NCBI GenBank assembly: GCA_964470025.1
Contig: CAYXZR010000006.1
Span: 1-35,912, forward strand
Reading direction: 5' to 3'
DNA from: an uncultured Gammaproteobacteria bacterium
Lineage (GTDB): Bacteria > Patescibacteriota > Patescibacteriia > Buchananbacterales > UBA6539
Length of the DNA stretch: 35,912 nucleotides
Below are positions 4,508-35,589 of the stretch, one piece after another. The notes below the pieces were generated by a model, which ran no database searches, was not told the DNA's origin, and was given only the letters and a program-made list of their open reading frames with translations. The translations under genes were made by a program, and so were the position numbers. How positions within the stretch are numbered: the first letter of the stretch is position 1; every line of letters begins with the position of its first letter.

Positions 4508-4579
4508 ACATGCAAGAATTATTAAAATAACAAACACATCATACAATATTATACCTCAAAAAGCAAGCAACTGAGCCAA

Positions 4580-5137
4580 TTATATAATATTTAGCTGCTT
4601 AATAAATCTCTGTGTTTTTAATTCGAAATTAATATGCTGTTCTAAAAACTTCATTAGTTGCACATGTGTTGCTACCATATGATCCTGTGGCTCATACCCA
4701 AGGTGCGTTAAGAGTTTTACAATGTACTTTTTTTCAAACACCCGCCACTCTTTCCGAGTAATACTCTCAGCTGCATCGAGCTGGCTAAAAAAATCAACCA
4801 TCATATCAAAAAGCTCATTATCTGGTTGACTCTGAGTCACAAGTGAGTCAAAAATTTCTAGCATGAAGCTTCCAAGTAGTATTTTGACACTGTTGTTTTT
4901 TATGTTTTTAAAACTATGCTCAACTCTGGCTGCGGTAAGCTGCTTGTTTTTCCCTTGTGCAAAACTTACAGCAACTACTGAAAACTGCTGCATGTGCGGG
5001 TTGAGCTTGCTAATAATTTTTTTTGTTCCCCTCCCTATCAGCGTAAGCTTGCCAAACCGTTTTGTATATACGGTAAAATACTGATCGAACTCATTGCGAA
5101 CAATAGAACGAATAACAAAAGCACTTGAGTGATACAT
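4580..5137 (-). CDS. recO: DNA repair protein RecO (short form)
   Basis: 185 aa. The N-terminal OB-fold region resembles RecO (AFVIRS....D....VYTK.FGK). It is shorter than the usual ~240 aa. Confidence 0.65.
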   Translation of the reverse strand: MYHSSAFVIRSIVRNEFDQYFTVYTKRFGKLTLIGRGTKKIISKLNPHMQQFSVVAVSFAQGKNKQLTAARVEHSFKNIKNNSVKILLGSFMLEIFDSLVTQSQPDNELFDMMVDFFSQLDAAESITRKEWRVFEKKYIVKLLTHLGYEPQDHMVATHVQLMKFLEQHINFELKTQRFIKQLNII

Positions 5138-7223: not shown

Positions 7224-8504
7224 CTAGATTCCGTCGTAATCACGCATGGTCAGCTGTGATTCAATCTGTTTTACTGATTCAATAATAACCTGAACGATAA
7301 TCAAAAGACTTGTACCACCAACTGCTAGAGATTGGATACCACTTACGTTTGAAGTGATTAATGGAAGTACTGCGATAACACCTAAGAATAACGCTCCAGC
7401 TAATACGATGCGAGTTGTTACAAAGTTAAGATACTCTGCTGTATGCTGCCCTGGTCGAATACCTGGAATAAATCCACCTTGCTTCTGTAGATTTTCAGCA
7501 ATTTGATCAGGATGGAATACAACTTCTGTGTAGAAATATGTAAATGCGAATACTAATAGGAAGTAAAATACTCCATAGAATACCTGGTTCTGAAACAATG
7601 CGATTGTCCATGTAGCGATTCCTACTAGTGTTTGTGATTCGGCGTTAAGGAAAAACTGAGCAACCATTGGTGGGAATAGTACGATTGAAATTGCAAAGAT
7701 GATTGGAATTACTCCAGCCATGTTCACTCGAAGCGGTAAATGAGTGTTTACTCCTCCATAACTACTCTGGCCACGCATACGACGAGCATATGATACAGGG
7801 ATGTTTCTCTGGCCCTCTGTCATAATCACCACACCCACAATAGTCACAATTGCAACAAGTACAAACATAACTATGTTTAGTATCTGACTTTGATCAAAGA
7901 CTGAAACGACTGTTTGTTGCAGTAGTGTTGGAAACTGAGCAACGATACCCGCAAAAATCAACAATGAAATACCATTACCCACATTTTTTTCAGAGATCAA
8001 CTCACCAAGCCACATTAAAAATACTGTTCCAGCAGTCATGGTTGTCATCACAGCAAACAGTCCCCATGCTGAAAAATCGGGTAATACGTTGACTTGTGAT
8101 TGTCGAAGTAATGTAATCAAGCCATATGCCTGCAAAAATCCAAGTGGGATTGTTAGCATTCTGGTCCACTGATTAATTTTTGCTCTTCCTGACTCACCAT
8201 CTTTTGAAAGCTCTTCAAGTCTCGGTACAACCATTGTAAGTAACTGGAAGATAATTGATGAGGTGATGTATGGTGCTACACCCATTGCAACGATTGAGAA
8301 GTTGTCCATACTTCCACCTGAAAGTAGGTTTACAATACTCAAAAACTGATTACCTGCAAAAAATTCACGTAATGCTATCGTATCAACTCCTGGAATTGGA
8401 ATATGTGCAGCAATTCGAAAAATAACCAACATTGCAATAACAAAAAGAATGCTGTTTCTAATTTCTTTGACTTTCCAGACTTGGGTTAGTTTTTTGAGTG
8501 ACAT
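7224..8504 (-). CDS. secY: preprotein translocase subunit SecY
   Basis: 426 aa, multi-TM, at the conserved position after rplO. Confidence 0.95.
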   Translation of the reverse strand: MSLKKLTQVWKVKEIRNSILFVIAMLVIFRIAAHIPIPGVDTIALREFFAGNQFLSIVNLLSGGSMDNFSIVAMGVAPYITSSIIFQLLTMVVPRLEELSKDGESGRAKINQWTRMLTIPLGFLQAYGLITLLRQSQVNVLPDFSAWGLFAVMTTMTAGTVFLMWLGELISEKNVGNGISLLIFAGIVAQFPTLLQQTVVSVFDQSQILNIVMFVLVAIVTIVGVVIMTEGQRNIPVSYARRMRGQSSYGGVNTHLPLRVNMAGVIPIIFAISIVLFPPMVAQFFLNAESQTLVGIATWTIALFQNQVFYGVFYFLLVFAFTYFYTEVVFHPDQIAENLQKQGGFIPGIRPGQHTAEYLNFVTTRIVLAGALFLGVIAVLPLITSNVSGIQSLAVGGTSLLIIVQVIIESVKQIESQLTMRDYDGI

Positions 8505-9732: not shown

Positions 9733-10092
9733 TTAGAAATTTAAGCCGCCTTCACGAGCACCTTCTGCTAGCGCCTTGATACGACCGTGATATGCATAGC
9801 CTGAACGATCGAATACTACTTCTGAAATACCAGCGTCTTTTGCTTTTTTAGCAATTGCAATTCCAACATTTTTTGCAGCATCAACTTTTGAACCTTCTTT
9901 TTTACCTAGTTCTTTGTCAGATGCAGCTGCAAGTGTTTTTCCAACAACATCGTCGATCAACTGAGCTGAGATATGATTCAAACTTCGAAATACCTGCAAC
10001 CGTGGTCGCTTTGCTGTGCCAACTACCTTAGCTCGTACGCGAGCTTTTCGTCGACTGTGTCTTTGTTGTTTTGCAATTTGTTTATTAGTCAT
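9733..10092 (-). CDS. rplR: 50S ribosomal protein L18
   Basis: 119 aa ending [19 protein letters not shown]. Confidence 0.93.
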
Positions 10093-26896: not shown

Positions 26897-26925
26897 AGTT
26901 TACCATTCATGGAAATGATGGTCAA
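26897..26925 (-). promoter_or_regulatory. sigma70-like promoter (TTGACC-17-TAAACT)
   Basis: It abuts the aroG terminator T-run, the same architecture as six other sites in the window. Confidence 0.4.
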
Positions 26926-26956
26926 AATAAAAATCCGACAAGAAAATCTTGTCGGA
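26926..26956 (-). terminator. intrinsic terminator after the DAHP synthase gene
   Basis: Minus strand reads TCCGACAAG-ATTTT-CTTGTCGGA followed by TTTTTATTTTG. Confidence 0.75.
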
Positions 26957-26975
26957 TGAAAGAGCAGATAGGATA

Positions 26976-28049
26976 CTACACCAGCATTTCGTATGCTTCT
27001 GCTAGCAAGCTAGCGGTTGCATCCCAATCCAAACATGGGTCAGTGATTGAAGTGCCATACCGCAGCTTGCGCAATGCGTCGGGTGCTGGAGAAAACTTTT
27101 GACTCCCTCCATTAATGTGACTTTCCAGCATGAGGCCCATGATAGTAGGATTGTTCGCACGGCGCTGACGAAGCACTGCTTTGAAAATTCCTGGTTGCGC
27201 AGTTGCGTCTTTACCAGAGTTTGCATGACTGCAGTCAACCATGATGCGGTCATTAACCCCAGCCTCCTGACACTTCATTGCCACTGCAGCTATTTCCTGC
27301 TCGCCGTAGTTTGAGCCACCCGAACCTCCGCGTAAGACGATGTGTCCAAAGCGATTGCCAGCGGTGGTTAGGGTTGAGACATGACCTGCGCCGTTAATAC
27401 CTAGAAAGCAGTGCTTACCAGCTGCAGCTAACATGCCGTGAATGGCAAGATCTACACTACCTCCCGTGCCGTTCTTGAATCCAAATGGCATGGAAAGCCC
27501 GCTTGCCATCTGTCGATGTGTTTGACTTTCAGCAGTGCGCGCTCCAAGGCATGCCCAGCTGATAACATCGGAAGTGTAGGCTGGGACGATCGGGTCCAAG
27601 AACTCGGTGCCGGTTGGCAAGCCCAGTTCATTGATGGCGATGAGGATTTTACGTGCCTGCTGAAACCCCTCTCGCACGTTAAACGAACCATTCAGCCAAG
27701 GATCGTTGATTAAGCCAGTCCAACCAAGTGTAGTACGCGGCTTCTCGAAGTAAGTTCGCATAAGGATTTCCATGCGATCTGCATAAGTCTGACGAAGCTC
27801 AACGAGACGCTCTGCGTAGTCGAGTGCAGCCTTTTCATCATGAATAGAGCATGGCCCCACAAGTACCAGTAACCGATTGTCTTCGCCGGTGATAATACGA
27901 CGAATTGCCTCTCGAGAAGCAGTGACAGTCTCTGCGGCTACATCAGTAATGGGAAGCATCTCAAGCACCCTATCAGGCGGGAGAAGCTCAGTGGTGCCAG
28001 TAATATTGAGATTATTAGTCCTTAAGTGTTCTGCAACTGCATTTGTCAT
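26976..28049 (-). CDS. aroG: 3-deoxy-7-phosphoheptulonate (DAHP) synthase, class I alpha (AroG/F/H type)
   Basis: 357 aa with GPCSIHD, KPRT, GARTAESQTHRQ and DCSHANS motifs, preceded by an AGGAGA SD. The isozyme specificity is not known. Confidence 0.92.
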   Translation of the reverse strand: MTNAVAEHLRTNNLNITGTTELLPPDRVLEMLPITDVAAETVTASREAIRRIITGEDNRLLVLVGPCSIHDEKAALDYAERLVELRQTYADRMEILMRTYFEKPRTTLGWTGLINDPWLNGSFNVREGFQQARKILIAINELGLPTGTEFLDPIVPAYTSDVISWACLGARTAESQTHRQMASGLSMPFGFKNGTGGSVDLAIHGMLAAAGKHCFLGINGAGHVSTLTTAGNRFGHIVLRGGSGGSNYGEQEIAAVAMKCQEAGVNDRIMVDCSHANSGKDATAQPGIFKAVLRQRRANNPTIMGLMLESHINGGSQKFSPAPDALRKLRYGTSITDPCLDWDATASLLAEAYEMLV

Positions 28050-28167
28050 AAGTGTATTCTCCTGACATTGGTGGAAGTGGCGGTACTATGTACTGCGGTT
28101 ACAATTTACTGCTTGTGATTCTTGTGATTGTTGTGCCCTGTAGTTCCTTTTTTAATGTAATGTGCGA

Positions 28168-28199
28168 TAAACAAAAAACTGACCTTTTTTAGACCAGTT
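28168..28199 (-). terminator. attenuator terminator in the DAHP synthase leader
   Basis: Minus strand reads AACTGGTCT-AAAAA-AGGTCAGTT followed by TTTTTTGTTTATC. Confidence 0.65.
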
Positions 28200-28232
28200 G
28201 CTTTGATACGTATTCACGACAAACTAACTGAT

Positions 28233-28286
28233 CTATAGGTCAGTAAAGAAAAAGCTAAAGAAATAGTTAGAATGTTGTGCTTTCAT
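28233..28286 (-). CDS. Phe/Tyr-rich leader peptide MKAQHSNYFFSFFFTDL
   Basis: 17 codons, checked codon by codon. There are 5 Phe in 6 consecutive positions, preceded by Tyr, with a TAG stop at 28235-28233. Confidence 0.7.
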   Translation of the reverse strand: MKAQHSNYFFSFFFTDL

Positions 28287-28296
28287 ATCTATTTTG

Positions 28297-28325
28297 AGCT
28301 TATACCTCAGAGTATGATTTGTCAA
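28297..28325 (-). promoter_or_regulatory. promoter (TTGACA, then -10 TATAAG/TAAGCT)
   Basis: It abuts the leuA terminator T-run and sits ~10 nt upstream of the leader ATG. Confidence 0.45.
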
Positions 28326-28330
28326 GAAAA

Positions 28331-28360
28331 TAAAAAAGGACCGCCAAAATGGTGGTCCTT
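28331..28360 (-). terminator. intrinsic terminator after leuA
   Basis: Minus strand reads AAGGACCACC-ATTTT-GGCGGTCCTT followed by TTTTTATTTTC. Confidence 0.7.
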
Positions 28361-28370
28361 AAAAGAACGA

Positions 28371-30068
28371 TTATCCCTGTGTTTTAAGGACTTTCTTGGA
28401 ACGACTGATGGCAGCGAGAATCGCCTTGATATTTACATTGCTTGAGTTAGTATCAAGCGCAGCACCCCAGACTTCGACATCGCCAAACGTAAGTTTAACA
28501 AACGATACAGCTGCAGCCTCTGAGCCTAAGCCAGTTGTTGAATCGACAAAATCGACCACCTTAAACCCATTAACTCCAAACTCAGCAAGACCATTCACAA
28601 ATGCATTGATTGGGCCATTACCAGTTCCGATGACTTGCTGCTCACTGCCTTCGACATTGATTTTAGCAAAGACAGTCACCTCGTCACCATCTTGGTTACT
28701 AGAGAACTTAACTAAGGTATGACTACCAGTTGGCTGCATAAATTCATCTTTAAACCATGCCATCACCTGCTCTGCTGTTGCTTCGCCTGCATTGTGATCA
28801 AGATATCCCTGAATCACCTGCCTGACAAATGGTTGAGCGGCTTTGGGAATACTAATGCCGTATTGCTCACGCAACACATGTGCAATGCCTCCCTTACCAC
28901 TCTGCGCATTGATACGGATGATTTTTTCAAACATCCTACCGACGTCCGCTGGGTTAATTATCAAATATGGCGCTTTCCAGCTACCATCTGGCTGGGTGGG
29001 ATTCACTAACCCCTTGCTGATTGCATCTTGGTGGGACCCTGAAAATGCAACATAGACAAGTTCTCCCACATATGGATGCCGAGGATCGATAGGCATGCCC
29101 GTAATTCTCACGACAGTTTCAACTATCTGAGAAAGATTACTAAAGTCGTACTCTAAGGGCAGTTCAATCCCCATTGCCATGCAGTTGAGAATCATAATAA
29201 CTAGGTCAACGTTTCCAGTTCGTTCACCGTGTCGAAAGAGTGTACCCTCGACTCGATCTGCGCCAGCAAGCACTGCATATGTTGCTGAAGCAGTTGCCAT
29301 GTCTTGATCGTTATGAGGATGCGCTGAAATTATCACACTCTCTCGATGAGTGAAACTGCGACAGAAGTATTCAAACTTGTCAGCAACTCGGTGAGGCCAC
29401 ATACGCTCAACAGTGGCCGGGAGATTAAATATCATGCGATTGTCAGGAGTTGCTTTGTTCCAGGCTGTAAACACAGCTTCACAAATCTCCAGAGCAAAAT
29501 CGATGTCAGTATCGGTAAATTCTTCTGGTGAGAACTCCAGATTAATCTGACTGCCAGACATCTGATCTGCAAGCATACTGATGAGCTCGACTGCATGAAC
29601 TGCTCGTGAGATTGTACTTTTTCTATCCAGCTGAAATACACCCTGCATATGCAGCTCTGAAGTGGCGATGTAGGCATGAACAATTGCCTGCTTTACGCCT
29701 ACAAGCGATTCAAAGGTTTTGCGGATCAAGTCTTCTCTGCACTGGGTGAGTACAGCGATGGTTACGTCATCAGGGATGTGGCCTTTTTCGATCAAGAGCC
29801 GAATAAACTCATAATCGTCCTGACTTGCCGAAGGAAAGCCAACCTCTATCTCCTTAAACCCAATACCGACAAGCATGTGAAAGTACTCAAGCTTCTGCTC
29901 AGGGCTCATGGGATTTTCGAGTGCTTGATTGCCATCTCGTAAGCACACGGAGGCAAATGTTACATGCGAAAACGCTTCGGCTTCGTTTCTGTCCGGCCAT
30001 GTTCGGTTGCTGAGCTTAACTGGCTGCGGGGGCCTGTACTGAGTGCGGGTAGCGACTGTAGATGTCAT
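28371..30068 (-). CDS. leuA: 2-isopropylmalate synthase, long (LeuA type 2) form
   Basis: 565 aa with LRDGNQA, HPHNDQDMATA and GERTGN motifs and a C-terminal regulatory domain. Confidence 0.88.
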   Translation of the reverse strand: MTSTVATRTQYRPPQPVKLSNRTWPDRNEAEAFSHVTFASVCLRDGNQALENPMSPEQKLEYFHMLVGIGFKEIEVGFPSASQDDYEFIRLLIEKGHIPDDVTIAVLTQCREDLIRKTFESLVGVKQAIVHAYIATSELHMQGVFQLDRKSTISRAVHAVELISMLADQMSGSQINLEFSPEEFTDTDIDFALEICEAVFTAWNKATPDNRMIFNLPATVERMWPHRVADKFEYFCRSFTHRESVIISAHPHNDQDMATASATYAVLAGADRVEGTLFRHGERTGNVDLVIMILNCMAMGIELPLEYDFSNLSQIVETVVRITGMPIDPRHPYVGELVYVAFSGSHQDAISKGLVNPTQPDGSWKAPYLIINPADVGRMFEKIIRINAQSGKGGIAHVLREQYGISIPKAAQPFVRQVIQGYLDHNAGEATAEQVMAWFKDEFMQPTGSHTLVKFSSNQDGDEVTVFAKINVEGSEQQVIGTGNGPINAFVNGLAEFGVNGFKVVDFVDSTTGLGSEAAAVSFVKLTFGDVEVWGAALDTNSSNVNIKAILAAISRSKKVLKTQG

Positions 30069-30103
30069 GATGGAACTTTTTCTCCTATTCCAAGATTGTA
30101 AAG

Positions 30104-30128
30104 ATCAAAAAACCTTCCGAGTGGAAGG
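30104..30128 (-). terminator. attenuator terminator in the leuA leader
   Basis: Minus strand reads CCTTCC-ACTC-GGAAGG followed by TTTTTTGATC. Confidence 0.65.
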
Positions 30129-30157
30129 CTGACTACTGAGTATATTTGCTACAAAAT

Positions 30158-30241
30158 TTACGCATCAATCAAACTTCCACCTTGAGGCTGGCTAAGAAGC
30201 AGGCTGAGCAGAAGTGAATTTTGTGCGTAAGAATAGTTCAT
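30158..30241 (-). CDS. Leu-rich leader peptide MNYSYAQNSLLLSLLLSQPQGGSLIDA
   Basis: 27 codons, verified, with 6 Leu in 7 positions and a TAA stop at 30160-30158. Confidence 0.7.
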   Translation of the reverse strand: MNYSYAQNSLLLSLLLSQPQGGSLIDA

Positions 30242-30254
30242 ATTGCTATTTATC

Positions 30255-30283
30255 AACCTATCTTAGATGGATTATTTTGTCAA
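30255..30283 (-). promoter_or_regulatory. promoter (TTGACA-17-TAGGTT)
   Basis: It abuts the upstream terminator T-run. Confidence 0.4.
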
Positions 30284-30314
30284 ATAAAAAAGCCTTGCTG
30301 GAACAACAAGGCTT
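30284..30314 (-). terminator. intrinsic terminator after the 100-aa ORF
   Basis: Minus strand reads AGCCTTGTTG-TTC-CAGCAAGGCT followed by TTTTTTATT. Confidence 0.7.
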
Positions 30315-30320
30315 GAAATG

Positions 30321-30623
30321 TTACTCATCCTCATCCTTGAGGATATACATAATCTCCGATGGAATCTCCGGCAAGTTGTCACCTAACAAGGTAACAATAT
30401 ATGGGATGCTTCTATCAAGTAATTCTTGGACCATGTGCCTTTGACGACTTCTTTTAGCAATAGGACCGGGCATTTGAACGCGTCTCAACAAAGTATCTGC
30501 TTCCCTAAGCTGCTGAAGAAGTCTTTTCTGAAGATACCCGGGGTCTTGCTCTCTCTGCCATACTGGTGCATTGCCCATAGTCTCTACCTGGACGACGACA
30601 CACGAATCGAACTGTCCTTCCAT
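30321..30623 (-). CDS. hypothetical 100-aa protein under a branched-chain-type attenuator
   Basis: GGAGAG SD plus its own promoter, leader, attenuator and terminator. I recognise no family. Confidence 0.6.
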   Translation of the reverse strand: MEGQFDSCVVVQVETMGNAPVWQREQDPGYLQKRLLQQLREADTLLRRVQMPGPIAKRSRQRHMVQELLDRSIPYIVTLLGDNLPEIPSEIMYILKDEDE

Positions 30624-30654
30624 GAGTAACTCTCCTTAAGATGAAATGAGCGGG

Positions 30655-30683
30655 CAAACAAAAACTAGTCTTTGTGAGACTAG
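30655..30683 (-). terminator. attenuator terminator in the leader of the 100-aa ORF
   Basis: Minus strand reads CTAGTCT-CACAA-AGACTAG followed by TTTTTGTTTG. Confidence 0.65.
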
Positions 30684-30728
30684 AATGTTTCGTTTGCTTT
30701 TTTGTGAAATTTATCGCATCAAAACACC

Positions 30729-30794
30729 CTAGTCGCTTTTGACTAGTACCACCTTAATGATTTGCTTAATCAGATTGTGTGGTTGTGTTTTCAT
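30729..30794 (-). CDS. Ile/Val/Leu/Lys-rich leader peptide MKTQPHNLIKQIIKVVLVKSD
   Basis: 21 codons, verified, with a TAG stop at 30731-30729. The last codons form a CTAGTC/GACTAG hairpin that can swap partners with the terminator arms. Confidence 0.6.
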   Translation of the reverse strand: MKTQPHNLIKQIIKVVLVKSD

Positions 30795-30805
30795 ACAATA
30801 TATTT

Positions 30806-30834
30806 AGCATATACCCGTTAAAAAGATGTGTCAA
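30806..30834 (-). promoter_or_regulatory. promoter (TTGACA-17-TATGCT)
   Basis: It abuts the cimA terminator T-run. Confidence 0.45.
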
Positions 30835-30861
30835 GAAAAAAGACCAAGTAACACTTGGTCT
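30835..30861 (-). terminator. intrinsic terminator after cimA
   Basis: Minus strand reads AGACCAAGT-GTT-ACTTGGTCT followed by TTTTTTC. Confidence 0.7.
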
Positions 30862-30867
30862 GGGTAT

Positions 30868-32409
30868 TTAAGGTGCGGTAGTTAGTCGACCGAGCAATAA
30901 TTTGTAATTAATCATCACTTCGGTAGCACGAATAGCAGCAATAACCTGATCGGTGTGAACTCCCCTTGTTTCAATCCGTACTGAATTGTCCCAGGTGATC
31001 GTTGCTTCAACAGGAGCATCAGTCTGGCCACCAGGTGGAATGTGCGCATCAAAGTCAGATAGTCGAGGGATGCTAAATGGTAATTCTAGCTGCGGCTCAA
31101 TATCTCGCAACGCATTCATGAAGGCATCATAGCCACCTGCCCCAGCAGCATGCGCTTCAAACTCTTTGTCACCTACGGCTATACGAATTGACGCAACAGG
31201 GCGGACTGACCTGTTGGTTGTGATAGTTGCGTGTGTCACCCTGAAAGCATCTTCTACTTCCAGCTTGAGAACTTTAGCAACTATGAATGGTAGATCCTCT
31301 CTGGTTACCGACTCTTTCATGTCACCGCGCCGGATAACTTCATTCAATACCAATGCTCGCTCTTCTGGACTCAGATCAAAACCAAGCTCGGCTACATTAA
31401 ACTCAATATTAGCTCTTCCAGACAGCTTACCTAGGGCATAGTGACGCGATCGACCGAAACGTTGTGGTGCAAGCACGCTGCCGTAGAGATCTCCTTTCTT
31501 GTCACCATCGGCATGTATGCCTGCTGTTTGCGTAAAAGCATTTTTTCCGAGAATTGGACAATTGGTTGCGACCTTTTGCCTACTTGCAGCTTGCACCAAC
31601 GCGCTGACAGCACTAAGCCGTGTTTCATCTACTGCGGTTTGGCGCTCAGTGTGATCACGAATAGCTGCGACCACTTCTGCCTGTGCTGCATTACCAGCGC
31701 GCTCTCCTAATCCATTTACCGTGACATGGACTCCAGCGACTCCACAACGCGCAGCGGCAATAGTGTTTGCAGTTGCAAAGCCGTAATCATTGTGCGCATG
31801 AAACTCAAATGTCAAACGATCATTATATCGCTCAAGTGTTTCTGAGAGAAACTGCTCGACCTGCCAAGGGTTTAATACCCCAAGCGTATCAGGCAACAAC
31901 ACTCGATCAACTTCCATAGTGCAGAGCGCATCAAGTAGTTGCCAAACGTACTCAGAATCATCCTTGATGCCGTTTGACCAATCCTCTAGATACACGTTAA
32001 CTGTTACCCCATGAGAACGTGCGTATGCAACAGTGTCAGTGATATCTTCTATGTGCTGCTCAAGTGACTTGCGCAACTGGCCACTGCAATGCTTACGAGA
32101 GCCTTTGCAAAGTAGATTCATCCGCTGACAGCCTGCGGCAATAAGCCAATTAACTGACAGCTCATGATCTACAAAACTCAGCACTTCAACTCGGTCTTGC
32201 ATTCCCACAGTAAGTGCCCAGTCCATAATGACTCTGACTGCTTGTTGCTCACCGTCGCTGACACGACAAGAAGCGACTTCGATTCGGTCTACTCCAACTT
32301 GTTGCAACAACATTTGTGCAATTGCCAATTTTTCTTCAGCGGCAAATGCAACTCCTTGTGTCTGTTCGCCATCGCGAAGGGTTGTGTCCATGATACTGAT
32401 TGTACTCAT
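30868..32409 (-). CDS. cimA: citramalate synthase / 2-isopropylmalate synthase family enzyme; the Ile-type leader favours CimA
   Basis: 513 aa with TLRDGEQ, HAHNDYGFATAN and GERAGNA motifs and a LeuA-type C-terminal domain. The substrate call rests on the Ile-rich leader and is an inference. Confidence 0.75.
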   Translation of the reverse strand: MSTISIMDTTLRDGEQTQGVAFAAEEKLAIAQMLLQQVGVDRIEVASCRVSDGEQQAVRVIMDWALTVGMQDRVEVLSFVDHELSVNWLIAAGCQRMNLLCKGSRKHCSGQLRKSLEQHIEDITDTVAYARSHGVTVNVYLEDWSNGIKDDSEYVWQLLDALCTMEVDRVLLPDTLGVLNPWQVEQFLSETLERYNDRLTFEFHAHNDYGFATANTIAAARCGVAGVHVTVNGLGERAGNAAQAEVVAAIRDHTERQTAVDETRLSAVSALVQAASRQKVATNCPILGKNAFTQTAGIHADGDKKGDLYGSVLAPQRFGRSRHYALGKLSGRANIEFNVAELGFDLSPEERALVLNEVIRRGDMKESVTREDLPFIVAKVLKLEVEDAFRVTHATITTNRSVRPVASIRIAVGDKEFEAHAAGAGGYDAFMNALRDIEPQLELPFSIPRLSDFDAHIPPGGQTDAPVEATITWDNSVRIETRGVHTDQVIAAIRATEVMINYKLLLGRLTTAP

Positions 32410-32584
32410 GTGCCTGCTCCTGTGGTAGTTTGTGAAAGATCAATTTGAAAAACAAGACAAACAAAAAATCCAGCTGGTGGCTGGACTCTCAAATCGTTTT
32501 GTTCAACGTTTACTAGAAAGCGGCCACCCGTGTAGGCTGGATAATAATGCTAATAATTGAAATGTTAGCGTATTGTGCTTTCAT
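32336..32584 (-). CDS. Ile-rich leader ORF MKAQYANISIISIIIQPTRVAG...; literal frame stays open for 82 codons
   Basis: ATG at 32584. There are 6 Ile in 8 positions. By manual translation the first in-frame stop is TGA at 32338-32336, inside cimA. A TAG-TAA pair (32514-32509) lies one frame off, at the position where a leader stop would be expected. This ORF is not in the supplied track, so it needs re-checking. Confidence 0.45.
32461..32484 (-). terminator. attenuator terminator in the cimA leader
   Basis: Minus strand reads TCCAGC-CACCA-GCTGGA followed by TTTTTTGTTGTC. Confidence 0.6.
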
Positions 32585-32590
32585 ATAATT

Positions 32591-32619
32591 ACTCTATCGC
32601 TTATCACCTATAGTGTCAA
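32591..32619 (-). promoter_or_regulatory. promoter (TTGACA-17-TAGAGT), 6 nt upstream of the leader ATG
   Basis: It abuts the tRNA-operon terminator T-run. The spacing predicts a leaderless or near-leaderless leader ORF. Confidence 0.45.
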
Positions 32620-32623
32620 ATAT

Positions 32624-32661
32624 AAAATAAAAAGCCCAATGAAGGTGGACCTACATTGGGC
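32624..32661 (-). terminator. intrinsic terminator closing the tRNA / structured-RNA unit
   Basis: Minus strand reads GCCCAATG-(12 nt)-CATTGGGC followed by TTTTTATTTT. Confidence 0.7.
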
Positions 32662-32701
32662 AAACTAAGAACAAAAGAACAAAACTACTAAAGAGCAAAT
32701 G

Positions 32702-32783
32702 TGGTCGGGCTAGAAGGAATCGAACCTTCGACCATGTGATGCTAGACTGCATCACACCGCTCTACCGACTGAGCTATAGCCCG
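32702..32783 (-). tRNA. atypical tRNA (82 nt with CCA) with Pro-like acceptor and an 8-9 bp anticodon stem
   Basis: The acceptor (CGGGCTA/TAGCCCG, A73), D arm (GCTC-AGTCGGTA-GAGC) and T arm (GAAGG-TTCGATT-CCTTC) are normal. The anticodon arm is TGTGATGC-AGTCTA-GCATCACA. Confidence 0.6.
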
Positions 32784-32886
32784 AGTGGAGAAAGAGCAGA
32801 TGTGGGGAATCATACTATCATCCACTCTTCCTCCGTGGGTTTGCCGGCGCAACTCTCTATGAAAGCCAGTGCCTGGCAAAAATTTC
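32784..32886 (-). ncRNA. structured spacer: 16-bp imperfect helix plus a small hairpin
   Basis: 32787-32802 pairs with 32819-32834. All three non-Watson-Crick positions are G-U on the minus strand and A-C on the plus strand. Confidence 0.45.
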
Positions 32887-32965
32887 AGGGGATGACAGGA
32901 GTCGAACCTGTGAGCTACTAAGCCACGTTGGCAAAGATACGCTCTAGCAATTAACTAACATCCCC
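32887..32965 (-). pseudogene. degenerate tRNA-Gly(GCC)-like element, no CCA
   Basis: The acceptor (GGGGATG/CATCCCC, U73), T arm (ACAGG-TTCGACT-CCTGT) and the loop heptamer TTGCCAA are all present, and that heptamer is identical to the one in the neighbouring tRNA-Gly. The anticodon and D stems do not pair, and the variable region is 11 nt. Confidence 0.5.
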
Positions 32966-33160
32966 TTTGTTGCGTCCACTACCTGTACAGCTGCCGTGCC
33001 CTGGTAGACGCAATGCTTGGGAACAAAAATTCGACGGGAGGTATGAATACCAGCAAAGAGCTGGTCCAAAAGATACGAGTGAAACTCGATCTCCAGTACA
33101 GACTGGTCCTCCCTTTGCGCTAGCATGAACGACTAAGAGTCGCTGGCATTGCGCAATAAA
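32966..33160 (-). ncRNA. structured spacer: multi-branched fold
   Basis: Helices 32970-79/33004-13, 33036-41/33108-13 (enclosing three 5-bp hairpins), 33115-20/33151-56 and 33129-34/33138-43. Confidence 0.45.
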
Positions 33161-33237
33161 TGGAGCTGCTGACGAGACTCGAACTCGCGACATCTTCCTT
33201 GGCAAGGAAGCGCTCTGACCAACTGAGCTACAGCAGC
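33161..33237 (-). tRNA. tRNA-Gly (anticodon GCC), CCA encoded
   Basis: Clean cloverleaf with loop UUGCCAA and U73. Confidence 0.9.
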
Positions 33238-33465
33238 TCTGAAATTTTTTGGGGAATGGAGTGTTCCAGGTCACCATCCCCCAAAGGTTGCAAACTTGTT
33301 ACTACTTGCAACCTGTTAGAAGCTGAGGTTGATTCCTCAAGAACTCTGTCTTTTGAGTCCGAGCAGCTACAAAGGCGCTCGCTTCCCTGCTCTACTCACG
33401 ATTACTGCTAGCCTGGCTGCGCGACTAACATCATGAGTAGCTTGCACCTGGCGCTGGTGCAAGAT
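33238..33465 (-). ncRNA. structured spacer: seven back-to-back hairpins
   Basis: Helices tile 33251-33462 almost without gaps. The coordinates are listed in the findings. Confidence 0.45.
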
Positions 33466-33542
33466 TGGCACACGTGGCCGGATTCGAACCGACGACAAGC
33501 GCATTGAGTTTTGCGCTGCTCTACCAACTGAGCTACACGTGC
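33466..33542 (-). tRNA. atypical tRNA with an 8-nt anticodon loop (AAACUCAA), G73, CCA encoded
   Basis: GCACGTG-TA-GCTC-AGTTGGTA-GAGC-A-GCGCA-AAACTCAA-TGCGC-TTGTC-GTCGG-TTCGAAT-CCGGC-CACGTGT-G-CCA. All other arms are canonical. Confidence 0.6.
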
Positions 33543-33551
33543 ACTAAAGCT

Positions 33552-33627
33552 TGGAGGACGTGATAGGATTCGAACCTACGACCAATGACTCCCAAAGTCA
33601 CTGCTCTGCCATCTGAGCTACACGTCC
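33552..33627 (-). tRNA. tRNA-Pro (anticodon UGG), CCA encoded, with non-bacterial-type G1:C72/U73 acceptor
   Basis: Cloverleaf with loop UUUGGGA. The acceptor and D arm are near-identical to those of the adjacent 8-nt-loop tRNA. Confidence 0.8.
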
Positions 33628-33914
33628 GGTGAAACTTTAGCGATTTTGAGCCCTCTCTCCGTGGACCGACCACATTTCCCTGCAGCGGAGAGAGGGCTGA
33701 CTGAGCAGGGGTACTGCCTGCAGGGAAATTTTGACTACATTGTCAAAGAAATTGATGGGTAGCGAGTCAGCTATTACGCACTGTTTCAGCTTTGGCTACT
33801 TCTAAGCCACAAGCACTCGCCACCCACCTCCTAGCCACACTATGATGGTATATCCCTTCACGGGGCCAGGAAATCTGTATATAAATATTTCAATTGCGTT
33901 TTTACGCAATTACT
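33628..33914 (-). ncRNA. ~285-nt structured 5' leader of the tRNA unit
   Basis: It contains an 11-bp helix closing a ~47-nt domain (33757-67/33815-25), interleaved perfect 13-bp and 11-bp helices (33649-33728) and a hairpin at 33892-33911. No credible ORF is present. Confidence 0.45.
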
Positions 33915-33943
33915 TTTATATATTATTTTTTACATCGTGTCAA
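33915..33943 (-). promoter_or_regulatory. promoter (TTGACA-17-TATAAA) driving the tRNA / structured-RNA unit
   Basis: Consensus -35 box, 17-nt spacer and near-consensus -10 box. Confidence 0.55.
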
Positions 33944-33950
33944 GTCATAT

Positions 33951-33978
33951 AAAAAAGTCACTGTCGTAACAGTGACTT
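33951..33978 (-). terminator. intrinsic terminator after the hydrolase gene
   Basis: Minus strand reads AAGTCACTG-TTACGA-CAGTGACTT followed by TTTTTTATATG. Confidence 0.75.
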
Positions 33979-33989
33979 AAGGTGCGAGG

Positions 33990-35549
33990 TTAGTAGGAAC
34001 TCCAATCTCCTACTGACGAGGTGTCCGGAGCTTCGAAGTTCGCGTACAGAATCCTGTCCTGCGAAATTGTGAATGAAATACTATTCGCAGTTTCTGATGT
34101 GCTCCAGCCATTAAATGTGGCGCCATCTTCTGGTACTGCGGTTAGCGTGACCATATCGCCGACGTTGTAGACTCCGCCGGGATTTTCTGGTGAAACAAGT
34201 ACATTGCCATTTCCACTTCCGAGAAGATTGACTCTGAGGACCCTTTCTGTCTCAGCAAGTTGAATTGTATGCATCTCACGCATACCATCATCAGATGTAA
34301 AGAAGAATGTCTGACGATAAGCATCGCCGGGGACTTCATATGGTGGGAAGATGTACTCGTCATCAAGCCGAGCCTCGAACCCAAGTTCGCTAGTAAAGCA
34401 GTCTGGGTTGACCGAGTTCACTGCACGATATCTGGAGTTGCGATCAGCTGGTCCGCCACCTAAGTAGTGATTACCACCGGGGACGGCAGTGAATTTCCAA
34501 TTGGCAATCTGCCAGCTGTCTGTATCGCCAGGTACTTGATAGTCATCAATGTCTTCTTGAGCGACTCCTGCGAAGCCAAACAACTTGTCACGGTAATCCC
34601 AGAAGTGCTGCGGGACAACGAGGCCATCGTTTAGTCCATGCATGACATAGACTCTGCTGACTTTATTGCCAAAGGTTGCCGCTAGTCCTGCGTGACGCTG
34701 TGGTGCACGCATTAACCGCTCCATGCTTTTTGTGGTTGTTAGGTCAGTGCTGTTGAGTGACCATGCGTTCACAATCCAGCCGGAGCCGTTGGCGTCACCA
34801 TCTGTACCGAGGGTGTAGCCGTTATTTTGCACGTCGTCTTGCGTCGAGATGAGCGTTAAGCCAGAGCCAGCATATACTTCGGCGAATGCCTTGGGTACTG
34901 CCTGAACAACTTGAAGTGCAAGGTGTGCTCCACCTGAGCCGCCAAGCATGTAAAGGCGTTGACGGTTGAGCGGCTTACCTTGATCTTCGAAATACTGAAG
35001 GGTTGCCTTCACCCCATTAATCACGTCGGCGACTTGAATATCGCCGTAATCATAGGGTGACATGTATCCCATGTTGCGGTAGAAGATTTTCACATAGACG
35101 ATGTCTTTTGTGTCCATCCACACTCGCAGCTCATTGAAGTTTGCATTTGCTGGATCATCAGCAAACACTCCTTGGTTGCTTGGACAGTCGGAAGTTCCGA
35201 TGCCGCCAAGCTCGACATACAAGCCCGTGCTTGCAGTGAGGGTTTCCATGCCGCCTTGAGGCAACACGACTACAGCTGAAATAGCAGCCGGGGTCTGTTG
35301 GCCGTCAGAGGAGCAGTTTGCAAATAGCCTTGAATCTGTGGCACCAGGATCACTGGGAACCTGCGACTCAAAAGTCAGATGCACTTTTGGATACACTGCC
35401 GGGGCAGACTTGCGTTGCACAATTGGGTTGATCTGTGGATCAAACTCAGGGACATAAAATATTTTTCCCTGAGCTTGAACGATGGCAGTCTGGAAAAGCC
35501 AGACAAGGGTTGCAAGGATTGTCATAATATAAAAGAGCGACTGCTTCAT
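33990..35549 (-). CDS. secreted alpha/beta-hydrolase (esterase/peptidase-like) with C-terminal divergent InlB B-repeat-like domain
   Basis: 519 aa with a signal peptide ending AQA-QG and a GxSxG nucleophile elbow (GGSGG). HGLNDGLVVP resembles the Asp/His region. The C-terminus LLGSGNGNVLVSP...VTLTAVPEDGATFNGWS matches the bacterial repeat pattern. Confidence 0.7.
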   Translation of the reverse strand: MKQSLFYIMTILATLVWLFQTAIVQAQGKIFYVPEFDPQINPIVQRKSAPAVYPKVHLTFESQVPSDPGATDSRLFANCSSDGQQTPAAISAVVVLPQGGMETLTASTGLYVELGGIGTSDCPSNQGVFADDPANANFNELRVWMDTKDIVYVKIFYRNMGYMSPYDYGDIQVADVINGVKATLQYFEDQGKPLNRQRLYMLGGSGGAHLALQVVQAVPKAFAEVYAGSGLTLISTQDDVQNNGYTLGTDGDANGSGWIVNAWSLNSTDLTTTKSMERLMRAPQRHAGLAATFGNKVSRVYVMHGLNDGLVVPQHFWDYRDKLFGFAGVAQEDIDDYQVPGDTDSWQIANWKFTAVPGGNHYLGGGPADRNSRYRAVNSVNPDCFTSELGFEARLDDEYIFPPYEVPGDAYRQTFFFTSDDGMREMHTIQLAETERVLRVNLLGSGNGNVLVSPENPGGVYNVGDMVTLTAVPEDGATFNGWSTSETANSISFTISQDRILYANFEAPDTSSVGDWSSY

Positions 35550-35589
35550 CGAAGTTCTCTCCTGTGTTGAGTTTTTTGAAGCTACCTAA

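Follow-up and report, generated by a model that had tools for sequence, protein, structure and literature searches.

Two perfect inverted repeats interleave just upstream of a tRNA-Pro(UGG) gene, and the locus raises the question of whether the RNA transcribed from it forms a pseudoknot, alternates between two exclusive hairpins, or does neither. An earlier note had left the choice between a pseudoknot and a mutually exclusive switch. Our analysis retains the H-type pseudoknot, given the disjoint pairing arms, the loop spans, and the energies, and sets aside the riboswitch or attenuator, because the features through which such a device would produce an output are absent. We tentatively propose that the element is a static structural module that caps and insulates a leader RNA released by RNase P, and not a ligand- or tRNA-sensing switch. 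Throughout, the window refers to the whole stretch of DNA analyzed (35,912 nucleotides), and its features lie on the minus strand unless otherwise noted.

Anatomy of the interleaved helices

Read on the minus strand, the element has the layout A-19 nt-B-A'-12 nt-B' and a total length of 81 nt. Helix A:A' (33718-33729 / 33674-33685) comprises 12 bp and helix B:B' (33686-33698 / 33649-33661) comprises 13 bp, and both were found to be 100% complementary by direct reading and by a repeat finder. In plus coordinates, the arms of the 13-nt repeat at 33649-33661 / 33686-33698 read AGCCCTCTCTCCG / CGGAGAGAGGGCT, and those of the 12-nt repeat at 33674-33685 / 33718-33729 read ATTTCCCTGCAG / CTGCAGGGAAAT. 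A 24-mer of the element reads AGCCCTCTCTCCGCTGCAGGGAAA, and the joined flanks read TTTCCCTGCAGCGGAGAGAGGGCT.

Arm A (33718-33729, AUUUCCCUGCAG) is the 5' strand of helix 1 (12 bp), and its inner 6 nt form the palindrome CUGCAG. Loop L1 (33699-33717, 19 nt, GCAGUACCCCUGCUCAGUC) leads to arm B (33686-33698, AGCCCUCUCUCCG), the 5' strand of helix 2 (13 bp), which abuts arm A' (33674-33685, CUGCAGGGAAAU), the 3' strand of helix 1, with zero linker nucleotides. Loop L3 (33662-33673, 12 nt, GUGGUCGGUCCA) is followed by arm B' (33649-33661, CGGAGAGAGGGCU), the 3' strand of helix 2. Between B' and G1 of the tRNA lies an A/U-rich linker of 21 nt (33628-33648) that is predicted to be unpaired and provides space for RNase P. 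The sequence after B' (CAAAAUCGCUAAAGUUUCACC / CAAAAUCGCUAAAG) is not a U-tract, and none occurs within the linker.

These measurements uphold the description of two perfect helices interleaved as A-B-A'-B', including the perfect 13 bp of B:B', the 19-nt spacing between A and B, the direct junction of B with A', and the missing U-tract 3' of B' (CAAAAUCGCUAAAGUUUCACC stands there). Two lengths and one distance required revision. Helix A, given before as 11 bp, is 12 bp long because an extra A-U pair forms, and L3 is hence 12 nt instead of the 13 nt claimed for the gap between A' and B'. The distance from B' to the tRNA 5' end (G1, 33627) had been put at 22 nt and is 21 nt.

The four arms are disjoint, sharing zero nucleotides; only weak mini-hairpins overlap with them. 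All 25 pairs are Watson-Crick, with no G-U pair, and G-C pairs make up 6/12 of helix A and 9/13 of helix B.

Occurrence of the pair relative to chance

Three perfect inverted repeats of at least 11 bp with a loop of at most 60 nt were found in the 35.9-kb window, two of which are A:A' and B:B'. Shuffled windows contained a mean of 0.49 repeats of at least 11 bp and 0.12 repeats of at least 12 bp per window. None of 300 dinucleotide-preserving shuffles of the full window contained an interleaved repeat pair. As a control with real DNA, 0.94 Mb from 88 unrelated bacterial and viral loci was searched for interleaved pairs of at least 10 bp. The pairs retrieved (n = 6) consisted of tandem palindromic copies (e.g., the unit AGATTTGACAACTT...AAGTTGTCAAATCT in control locus L013), a repeated 14-mer (two direct and two inverted copies in L032), or AT-rich runs (e.g., L012). 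Two unrelated arm sequences with a single partner each were seen in none of these six control pairs from the 0.94 Mb. Taken together, the window repeat count, the 300 shuffles, and the 0.94-Mb control establish that the interleaved pair is real and non-random, far beyond chance.

We note separately that the palindromic unit of L013, a Thiomargarita sp. MAG, is ~30 nt long and is present in tandem arrays at 4537-4640, 7529-7615, and 9770-9860. These arrays, with at least three occurrences in 13 kb, lie near a citramalate-synthase homologue and look like a REP/MITE-like repeat family.

Folding energetics and geometry

With folding restricted to nested structures, the hairpin-A state has an energy of -28.4 kcal/mol and the hairpin-B state, which is the minimum free energy (MFE) fold, -35.8 kcal/mol. 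The corresponding values are -19.1 kcal/mol for duplex A, -26.7 kcal/mol for duplex B, and -53.3 kcal/mol for an uninterrupted 25-bp duplex. The energy of the pseudoknot was calculated as the helix sum with the duplex-initiation term removed, a penalty of 9.6 kcal/mol, and small per-nucleotide terms. This penalty is a parameter of the Dirks-Pierce model. The pseudoknot was estimated at approximately -41 to -45 kcal/mol, compared with -35.8 kcal/mol for the best nested fold, and by this estimate it would be the more stable of the two.

Geometry also permits the pseudoknot. In an ideal A-form model, L1 crosses the deep groove of helix 2 over 13 bp and needs ~46 Å, with 19 nt reaching >110 Å; L3 crosses the shallow groove of helix 1 over 12 bp and needs ~43 Å, with 12 nt reaching ~78 Å. 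Both loops of the model thus have the span that an H-type pseudoknot requires, and its strands interleave with 12 + 13 perfect pairs. In nested folds, L1 can form a mini-hairpin of 4-5 bp and L3 one of 3-4 bp, and these weak structures would have to open in the pseudoknot. The L1 mini-hairpin is probably incompatible with the full pseudoknot, because just 6 nt would be left to span ~46 Å.

Step-wise MFE prediction of the growing transcript found A:A' to be optimal once A' is complete and until the last bases of B' are added. The full-length ensemble, restricted to nested structures, switches to B:B' (P = 0.9999, versus 5e-5 for A:A'). If a model permits pseudoknots, breaking A:A' would be unnecessary. 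Each helix is longer than one helical turn, and strand threading may therefore be required for both to form completely at once (PMC4829277, PMC13725558). Completion of the second helix may also be hindered kinetically by the long structured 5' part of the transcript and by a 3' end held by the polymerase (PMC4829277, PMC13725558).

The same energetics give rise to the alternative that survives best, in which the B:B' hairpin alone persists and A:A' is a transient intermediate or an accident. The stable B hairpin would then serve, within the leader of the tRNA precursor, as a conventional determinant of processing or stability or as a site of pausing. Such a reading draws on the near-complete dominance of B:B' in the nested ensemble, on the MFE fold of the leader (in which B:B' is accompanied by a local hairpin that ties up the 3' half of A), and on the threading constraints past one turn, which disfavor a second helix (PMC13725558, PMC4829277). 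It leaves unexplained, however, why a second perfect 12-bp repeat is present, with a chance expectation of 0.12 per window, and why A' exactly abuts B. Moreover, with threading blocked, both duplexes of an engineered single-stranded DNA (12 + 12 bp) still hybridized, giving a pseudoknot (PMC13725558). We regard a lone B:B' hairpin as rather unlikely.

Genomic context of the element

The window is a bacterial chromosome segment encoding S12, S7, EF-G, EF-Tu, SecY, and AspRS, with all genes on the minus strand. The tRNA unit is free of ORFs and corresponds to a candidate transcript of ~1.3 kb. It is preceded by the terminator of the upstream 519-aa gene (33978-33955) and by a promoter-like site, TTGACA-17 nt-TATAAA (33915-33943), which was identified by direct sequence reading and matches 11/12 consensus positions; its -10 hexamer lacks the usual final T. 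A second TTGACA, at 33746-33741, was considered as an internal promoter and rejected, as a -10 element is absent. A hairpin of 8-9 bp (33891-33912) lies at, or close to, the predicted start of the transcript, and a 6-bp hairpin, UUUGAC/GUCAAA (33730-33747), directly abuts the 5' side of arm A.

The first tRNA of the operon is encoded at 33552-33627, and its identification as tRNA-Pro(UGG) was borne out by an ARAGORN call and an Rfam score of 67 bits. Another tRNA, with an 8-nt anticodon loop (33466-33542), begins 9 nt past tRNA-Pro and is followed by tRNA-Gly(GCC), a weak tRNA-like element (27.3 bits), and a further tRNA-like gene. A terminator at 32652-32632 closes the unit. The tRNA operon is unusual and includes non-canonical tRNA-like genes.

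Several of these genes have properties of their own. The tRNA-Pro(UGG) at 33552-33627 has G1-C72 and U73. Bacterial tRNA-Pro typically has C1-G72 and A73, and the encoded tRNA may, judging by these positions, not be a standard proline acceptor. The 8-nt anticodon loop of the tRNA at 33466-33542 reads AAACUCAA, and ARAGORN assigns it the 4-base anticodon 'actc'. In the D and T arms, this tRNA is 78-81% identical to tRNA-Pro, which suggests an origin by tandem duplication of tRNA-Pro; the product could be a frameshift-suppressor-type or decoy tRNA. The last tRNA-like gene is flanked by a 15-nt direct repeat (32690-32704 and 32791-32805; minus strand, CCACAU[U/C]UGCUCUUU), in which UGCUCUUU resembles the start of the boxA antitermination motif of rRNA operons. 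Finally, an Rfam match to YrlA (Y RNA-like) at 33486-33604 on the minus strand scored 41.4 bits (E = 2.5e-7), below the gathering score of 69. It runs from the second half of tRNA-Pro into the first half of the tRNA after it and is probably driven by tRNA-likeness.

On the transcribed strand, the leader (~280 nt) folds with -111.3 kcal/mol, far more stably than shuffled sequences (z = -6.45); the opposite strand reaches -96.6 kcal/mol (z = -4.2). This predicted asymmetry fits a strand-specific RNA structure that uses G-U pairs, which are present in the domains neighboring the core. As modeled, the leader is a string of folded modules, of which the interleaved element is the last before the tRNA.

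A GTPase-associated center look-alike in the leader

The main recognizable domain of the leader resembles the GTPase-associated center of 23S rRNA (helices 43/44, the L11 site) and spans 33755-33828, with a core at 33762-33820. A focused Rfam scan matched 33820-33762 on the minus strand to positions 1092-1149 of LSU_rRNA_bacteria (36.3 bits, E = 1.1e-9), i.e., to the region of helices 43/44 that binds L11 and thiostrepton. The look-alike is located ~33 nt upstream of the interleaved element. Because a significant rRNA-domain look-alike is present, the leader is more than a spacer. No rRNA look-alikes were found in the other spacers.

Set against three genuine 23S fragments and a viral look-alike in an alignment, the domain keeps nearly every loop residue, and one G-C pair is compensatorily flipped to C-G (AAAGA...CUCAC to AAACA...CUGAC). 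The closing helix is rebuilt from a different sequence, GCGAG/CUCGC, and the look-alike is closed by an added 13-bp stem that is helix-42-like, is not derived from rRNA, and includes two G-U pairs. An rRNA-domain mimic within the leader of a tRNA operon is unusual; it could be an L11/L10-binding decoy or regulator.

Two further observations concern helix 43/44 sequences in other loci. The viral contig L083 (IMG/VR UViG_2721755776_000002) carries a second stand-alone copy of the helix 43/44 motif at 1760-1820. A ribosome-binding site with a small hydrophobic ORF comes directly after this copy, and a scan at Rfam gathering thresholds showed no rRNA gene in its surroundings. In L084 (2540-2726), a 23S rRNA fragment ends ~60 nt past the helix 43/44 region and continues into AT-rich, non-rRNA sequence; the break would fit an intervening sequence or intron in the 23S gene.

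Relatives and possible neutral origin

Searches for relatives of the locus retrieved little, and no homologous locus was among the results. Look-ups of public sequencing runs likewise yielded none that covers the region. With blastn, the 1.7-kb query against phages and the leader against plasmids matched tRNA bodies only. Exact-pattern scans of IMG/VR with the central 19-mer, the anticodon arms of tRNA-Pro and of the odd tRNA, and the variant GTPase-center motif gave nothing homologous and one coincidence in a coding region (L088). A metagenome scan for the rRNA-like motif with the 5' end of a tRNA 130-160 nt downstream of it retrieved one spurious tRNA array (L087). Genome contigs scanned with the adjacent cimA-like protein contained relatives of at most 58% identity and showed no synteny.

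Protein searches gave a similar picture. In a search of 5.8 billion proteins, the 519-aa S9-peptidase/InlB-repeat protein had no homologue, and the best relatives of the cimA-like synthase were at most 60% identical. The orphan 188-aa neighbor has one relative (42% identical), at a non-syntenic locus. Even EF-Tu, EF-G, S12, S7, SecY, and others are singleton 90% clusters among ~15 billion proteins, and the source organism is essentially unsampled. We also note that the segment at 26900-35550 contains two proteins, the 519-aa protein and the cimA-like synthase, for which 5.8 billion protein clusters contain no relative more than 60% identical.

The isolation of the locus bears on a second alternative, namely, that the element arose at the DNA level or is neutral, as a product of template-switch or fold-back replication errors or as the remnant of an inserted element, with no selected RNA function. 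The 56 nt between A and B' hold the exact reverse complement of both flanks. Because 25/25 pairs are Watson-Crick and none is G-U, the feature is strand symmetric, and the 96-nt core in fact folds slightly better on the plus strand (-39.1 kcal/mol) than on the minus strand (-35.8 kcal/mol). The core thus carries no signal of strand or of RNA versus DNA, and we infer the strand on which the element acts from its context only. The element occurs once in the 36-kb window, within a compositionally distinct segment whose cimA-like and 519-aa genes lack close relatives.

Against a neutral origin, two independent perfect events would be required at one site, and the window contains no target-site duplication, no transposase, and no extra copy of the element. 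The surrounding leader has predicted strand-specific RNA structure and a domain of conserved fold, and the loop lengths of the element happen to suit a pseudoknot. On balance, a neutral origin appears unlikely. Were the element a product of neutral template switching, it would be a mere curiosity.

Switching and membership in known RNA families

A third alternative is a two-state switch between hairpin A, which leaves B and B' unpaired, and hairpin B, which leaves A unpaired, set kinetically or by a factor, with RNase P processing or leader-tRNA pairing as its output. The element has three alternative states ~7-15 kcal/mol apart and a sequential folding order, and the probable protein-binding domain 33 nt upstream could host the factor. 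In addition, the end of A' together with L3 residues (33677-33666) could pair over 12 nt with the last tRNA-like gene, at its 3' end and trailer (32708-32697). This match is at chance level, however, because two other, unrelated 12-mers of the window match the same 138-nt query.

The competing helices, moreover, share no nucleotides, and neither a terminator, a ribosome-binding site, nor an ORF is present to serve as output. Terminator prediction gave no call in 33628-33890; what lies downstream is a tRNA instead of an ORF. Rfam searches for aptamer, T-box, leader, and ribozyme families at E values up to 10, including a 141-nt search with lax filters, returned miRNA-hairpin noise only; no riboswitch, T-box, or leader family matched at an E value of at most 10. 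We know of no switch that governs RNase P access from 21 nt away. With disjoint arms, no U-tract, no ribosome-binding site, no ORF, and no Rfam family, a riboswitch or attenuator is unlikely. One caveat is that the two hairpins may compete kinetically, given that both helices are longer than one A-form turn. Overall, we consider a two-state switch quite doubtful.

Other identities were considered and rejected. L3 contains UGGU, with CCACGG after the loop, reminiscent of a T-box, but no covariance-model match to that family was obtained. The topology is analogous to P3-P7 of a group I intron core, an identity at odds with the far smaller size of the element and the excessive length of its stems. 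HDV-like ribozymes have a different helix order (P1-P2-P3hp-P1'-P4hp-P2'), and neither they nor other self-cleaving ribozymes with nested pseudoknots (twister, pistol) gave a family covariance-model match. Type III antitoxin repeats were rejected in view of the absence of both a tandem array and a toxin gene, and ARAGORN found no tmRNA. A primer-binding site for the last tRNA-like gene was likewise rejected, as complementarity to the mature 3' end extends over just 7 nt and the longer match of 12 nt is no better than chance. The element is outside every described riboswitch, leader, ribozyme, or sRNA family.

Proposed mechanism

For the static structural module, we propose the following sequence of events. 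During transcription, A would pair with A' as soon as A' emerges, and the emerging B' would then pair with B inside the loop of hairpin A. In the resulting H-type pseudoknot, the continuous B-A' strand would let the two helices stack into 25 bp of quasi-continuous helix, and L1 and L3 would extend along the grooves. RNase P would cut at G1 of tRNA-Pro, 21 nt downstream, and free a leader RNA of ~280 nt that carries a hairpin at its 5' terminus, the GTPase-center look-alike, and, toward its 3' end, the knot-like module. In this position, the module may act as a rigid block to 3' exonucleases and helicases, and it may insulate folding of the leader from folding of the tRNA. Transcription and processing of the leader, coexistence of both helices, stability of the freed RNA, and its protection by the module are all inferred. 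If the leader is indeed released and protected at its end, the locus would represent bacterial tRNA-punctuated production of a structured non-coding RNA.

The topology of the pseudoknot depends on when its ends are free. The most likely cellular product would be a non-threaded pseudoknot, possibly incompletely zipped, because the 5' side is a folded RNA of 230 nt and the 3' side is held by the polymerase until RNase P cuts. A threaded form would be possible solely after processing. It is very unlikely that the 81 nt form an open trefoil-type knot or slipknot, with the short 3' tail threaded after the RNase P cut and the entanglement mechanically locking the leader against exonucleases and helicases; if this were true, nature would have a functional RNA knot that is defined by its sequence.

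Comparison with known systems

The closest functional parallels to the proposed module are elements that protect RNA 3' ends. In MALAT1 and MEN-beta, a triple helix upstream of the RNase P cut at the tRNA-like mascRNA guards the new 3' end, and bacterial REP and terminator hairpins block 3' exonucleases. Like the MALAT1 element, the present one is structured and lies tens of nucleotides before the RNase P site of a tRNA or tRNA-like RNA, at what is predicted to become a 3' end upon leader release. Unlike MALAT1 or REP elements, it would be a pseudoknot and not a triple helix or a simple hairpin. Attenuators and riboswitch platforms share with it the presence of alternative stable helices in a 5' leader, whereas the element has no shared nucleotides between its helices, no U-tract, no regulated ORF, and no match to an aptamer family.

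Exoribonuclease-resistant RNAs (xrRNAs) of flaviviruses and plant viruses are compact pseudoknotted folds that mechanically resist a processive nuclease, as is proposed here (PMC12397905, PMC11702639). In contrast to the present element, xrRNAs adopt a ring-like architecture of short helices and stop Xrn1 in the 5'-3' direction, and the block proposed here is 3'-5'. The two have no similarity in sequence or in Rfam matches.

Whether natural RNAs form knots is an open question, described as 'the elusive quest for RNA knots' (PMC4829277), and structural work has identified just one RNA knot (PMC13725558). RNAs in which several helices of 10 bp or more are pseudoknotted have been called 'prime candidates for knotting', and long-stem candidates include ColIb-P9 repZ (18 + 10 bp), the CCR5 frameshift element (13 + 25 bp), and pMU407 repBA (19 + 8 bp) (PMC4829277, Table 2). 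The present element has two such pseudoknotted helices, of 12 and 13 bp, and is an RNA-knot candidate because both are longer than one helical turn. It has the X-Y-X'-Y' order of the published candidates and, like them, helices of at least 10 bp. Those candidates lie in mRNAs and control translation or frameshifting, whereas the present element lies in the ORF-free leader of a tRNA operon and combines perfect, near-equal helices (12 and 13 bp) with a zero-nucleotide junction. In this one sequence, the RNA-knot question gains a concrete case from nature that can be tested.

The nearest structural counterparts are engineered. A strand designed with two interleaved 12-bp duplexes becomes a knot if an end threads, and a strand of the same design with bulky ends becomes a pseudoknot in which both duplexes are still hybridized (PMC13725558). 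These and Seeman-type constructs (PMC4829277) follow a blueprint nearly identical to that of the present element, with helices of just over one turn, unequal helix stability, and spacers long enough for full hybridization. Unlike the constructs, the element is natural, is embedded in a candidate transcript of ~1.3 kb, and has one junction without a spacer. It is a short natural match to the engineered knot and pseudoknot blueprint, testable by published pulling or circularization assays. Near-equal perfect helices of just over one turn, a linkerless junction, and a position in a tRNA-operon leader beside an rRNA look-alike set it apart from known natural pseudoknots.
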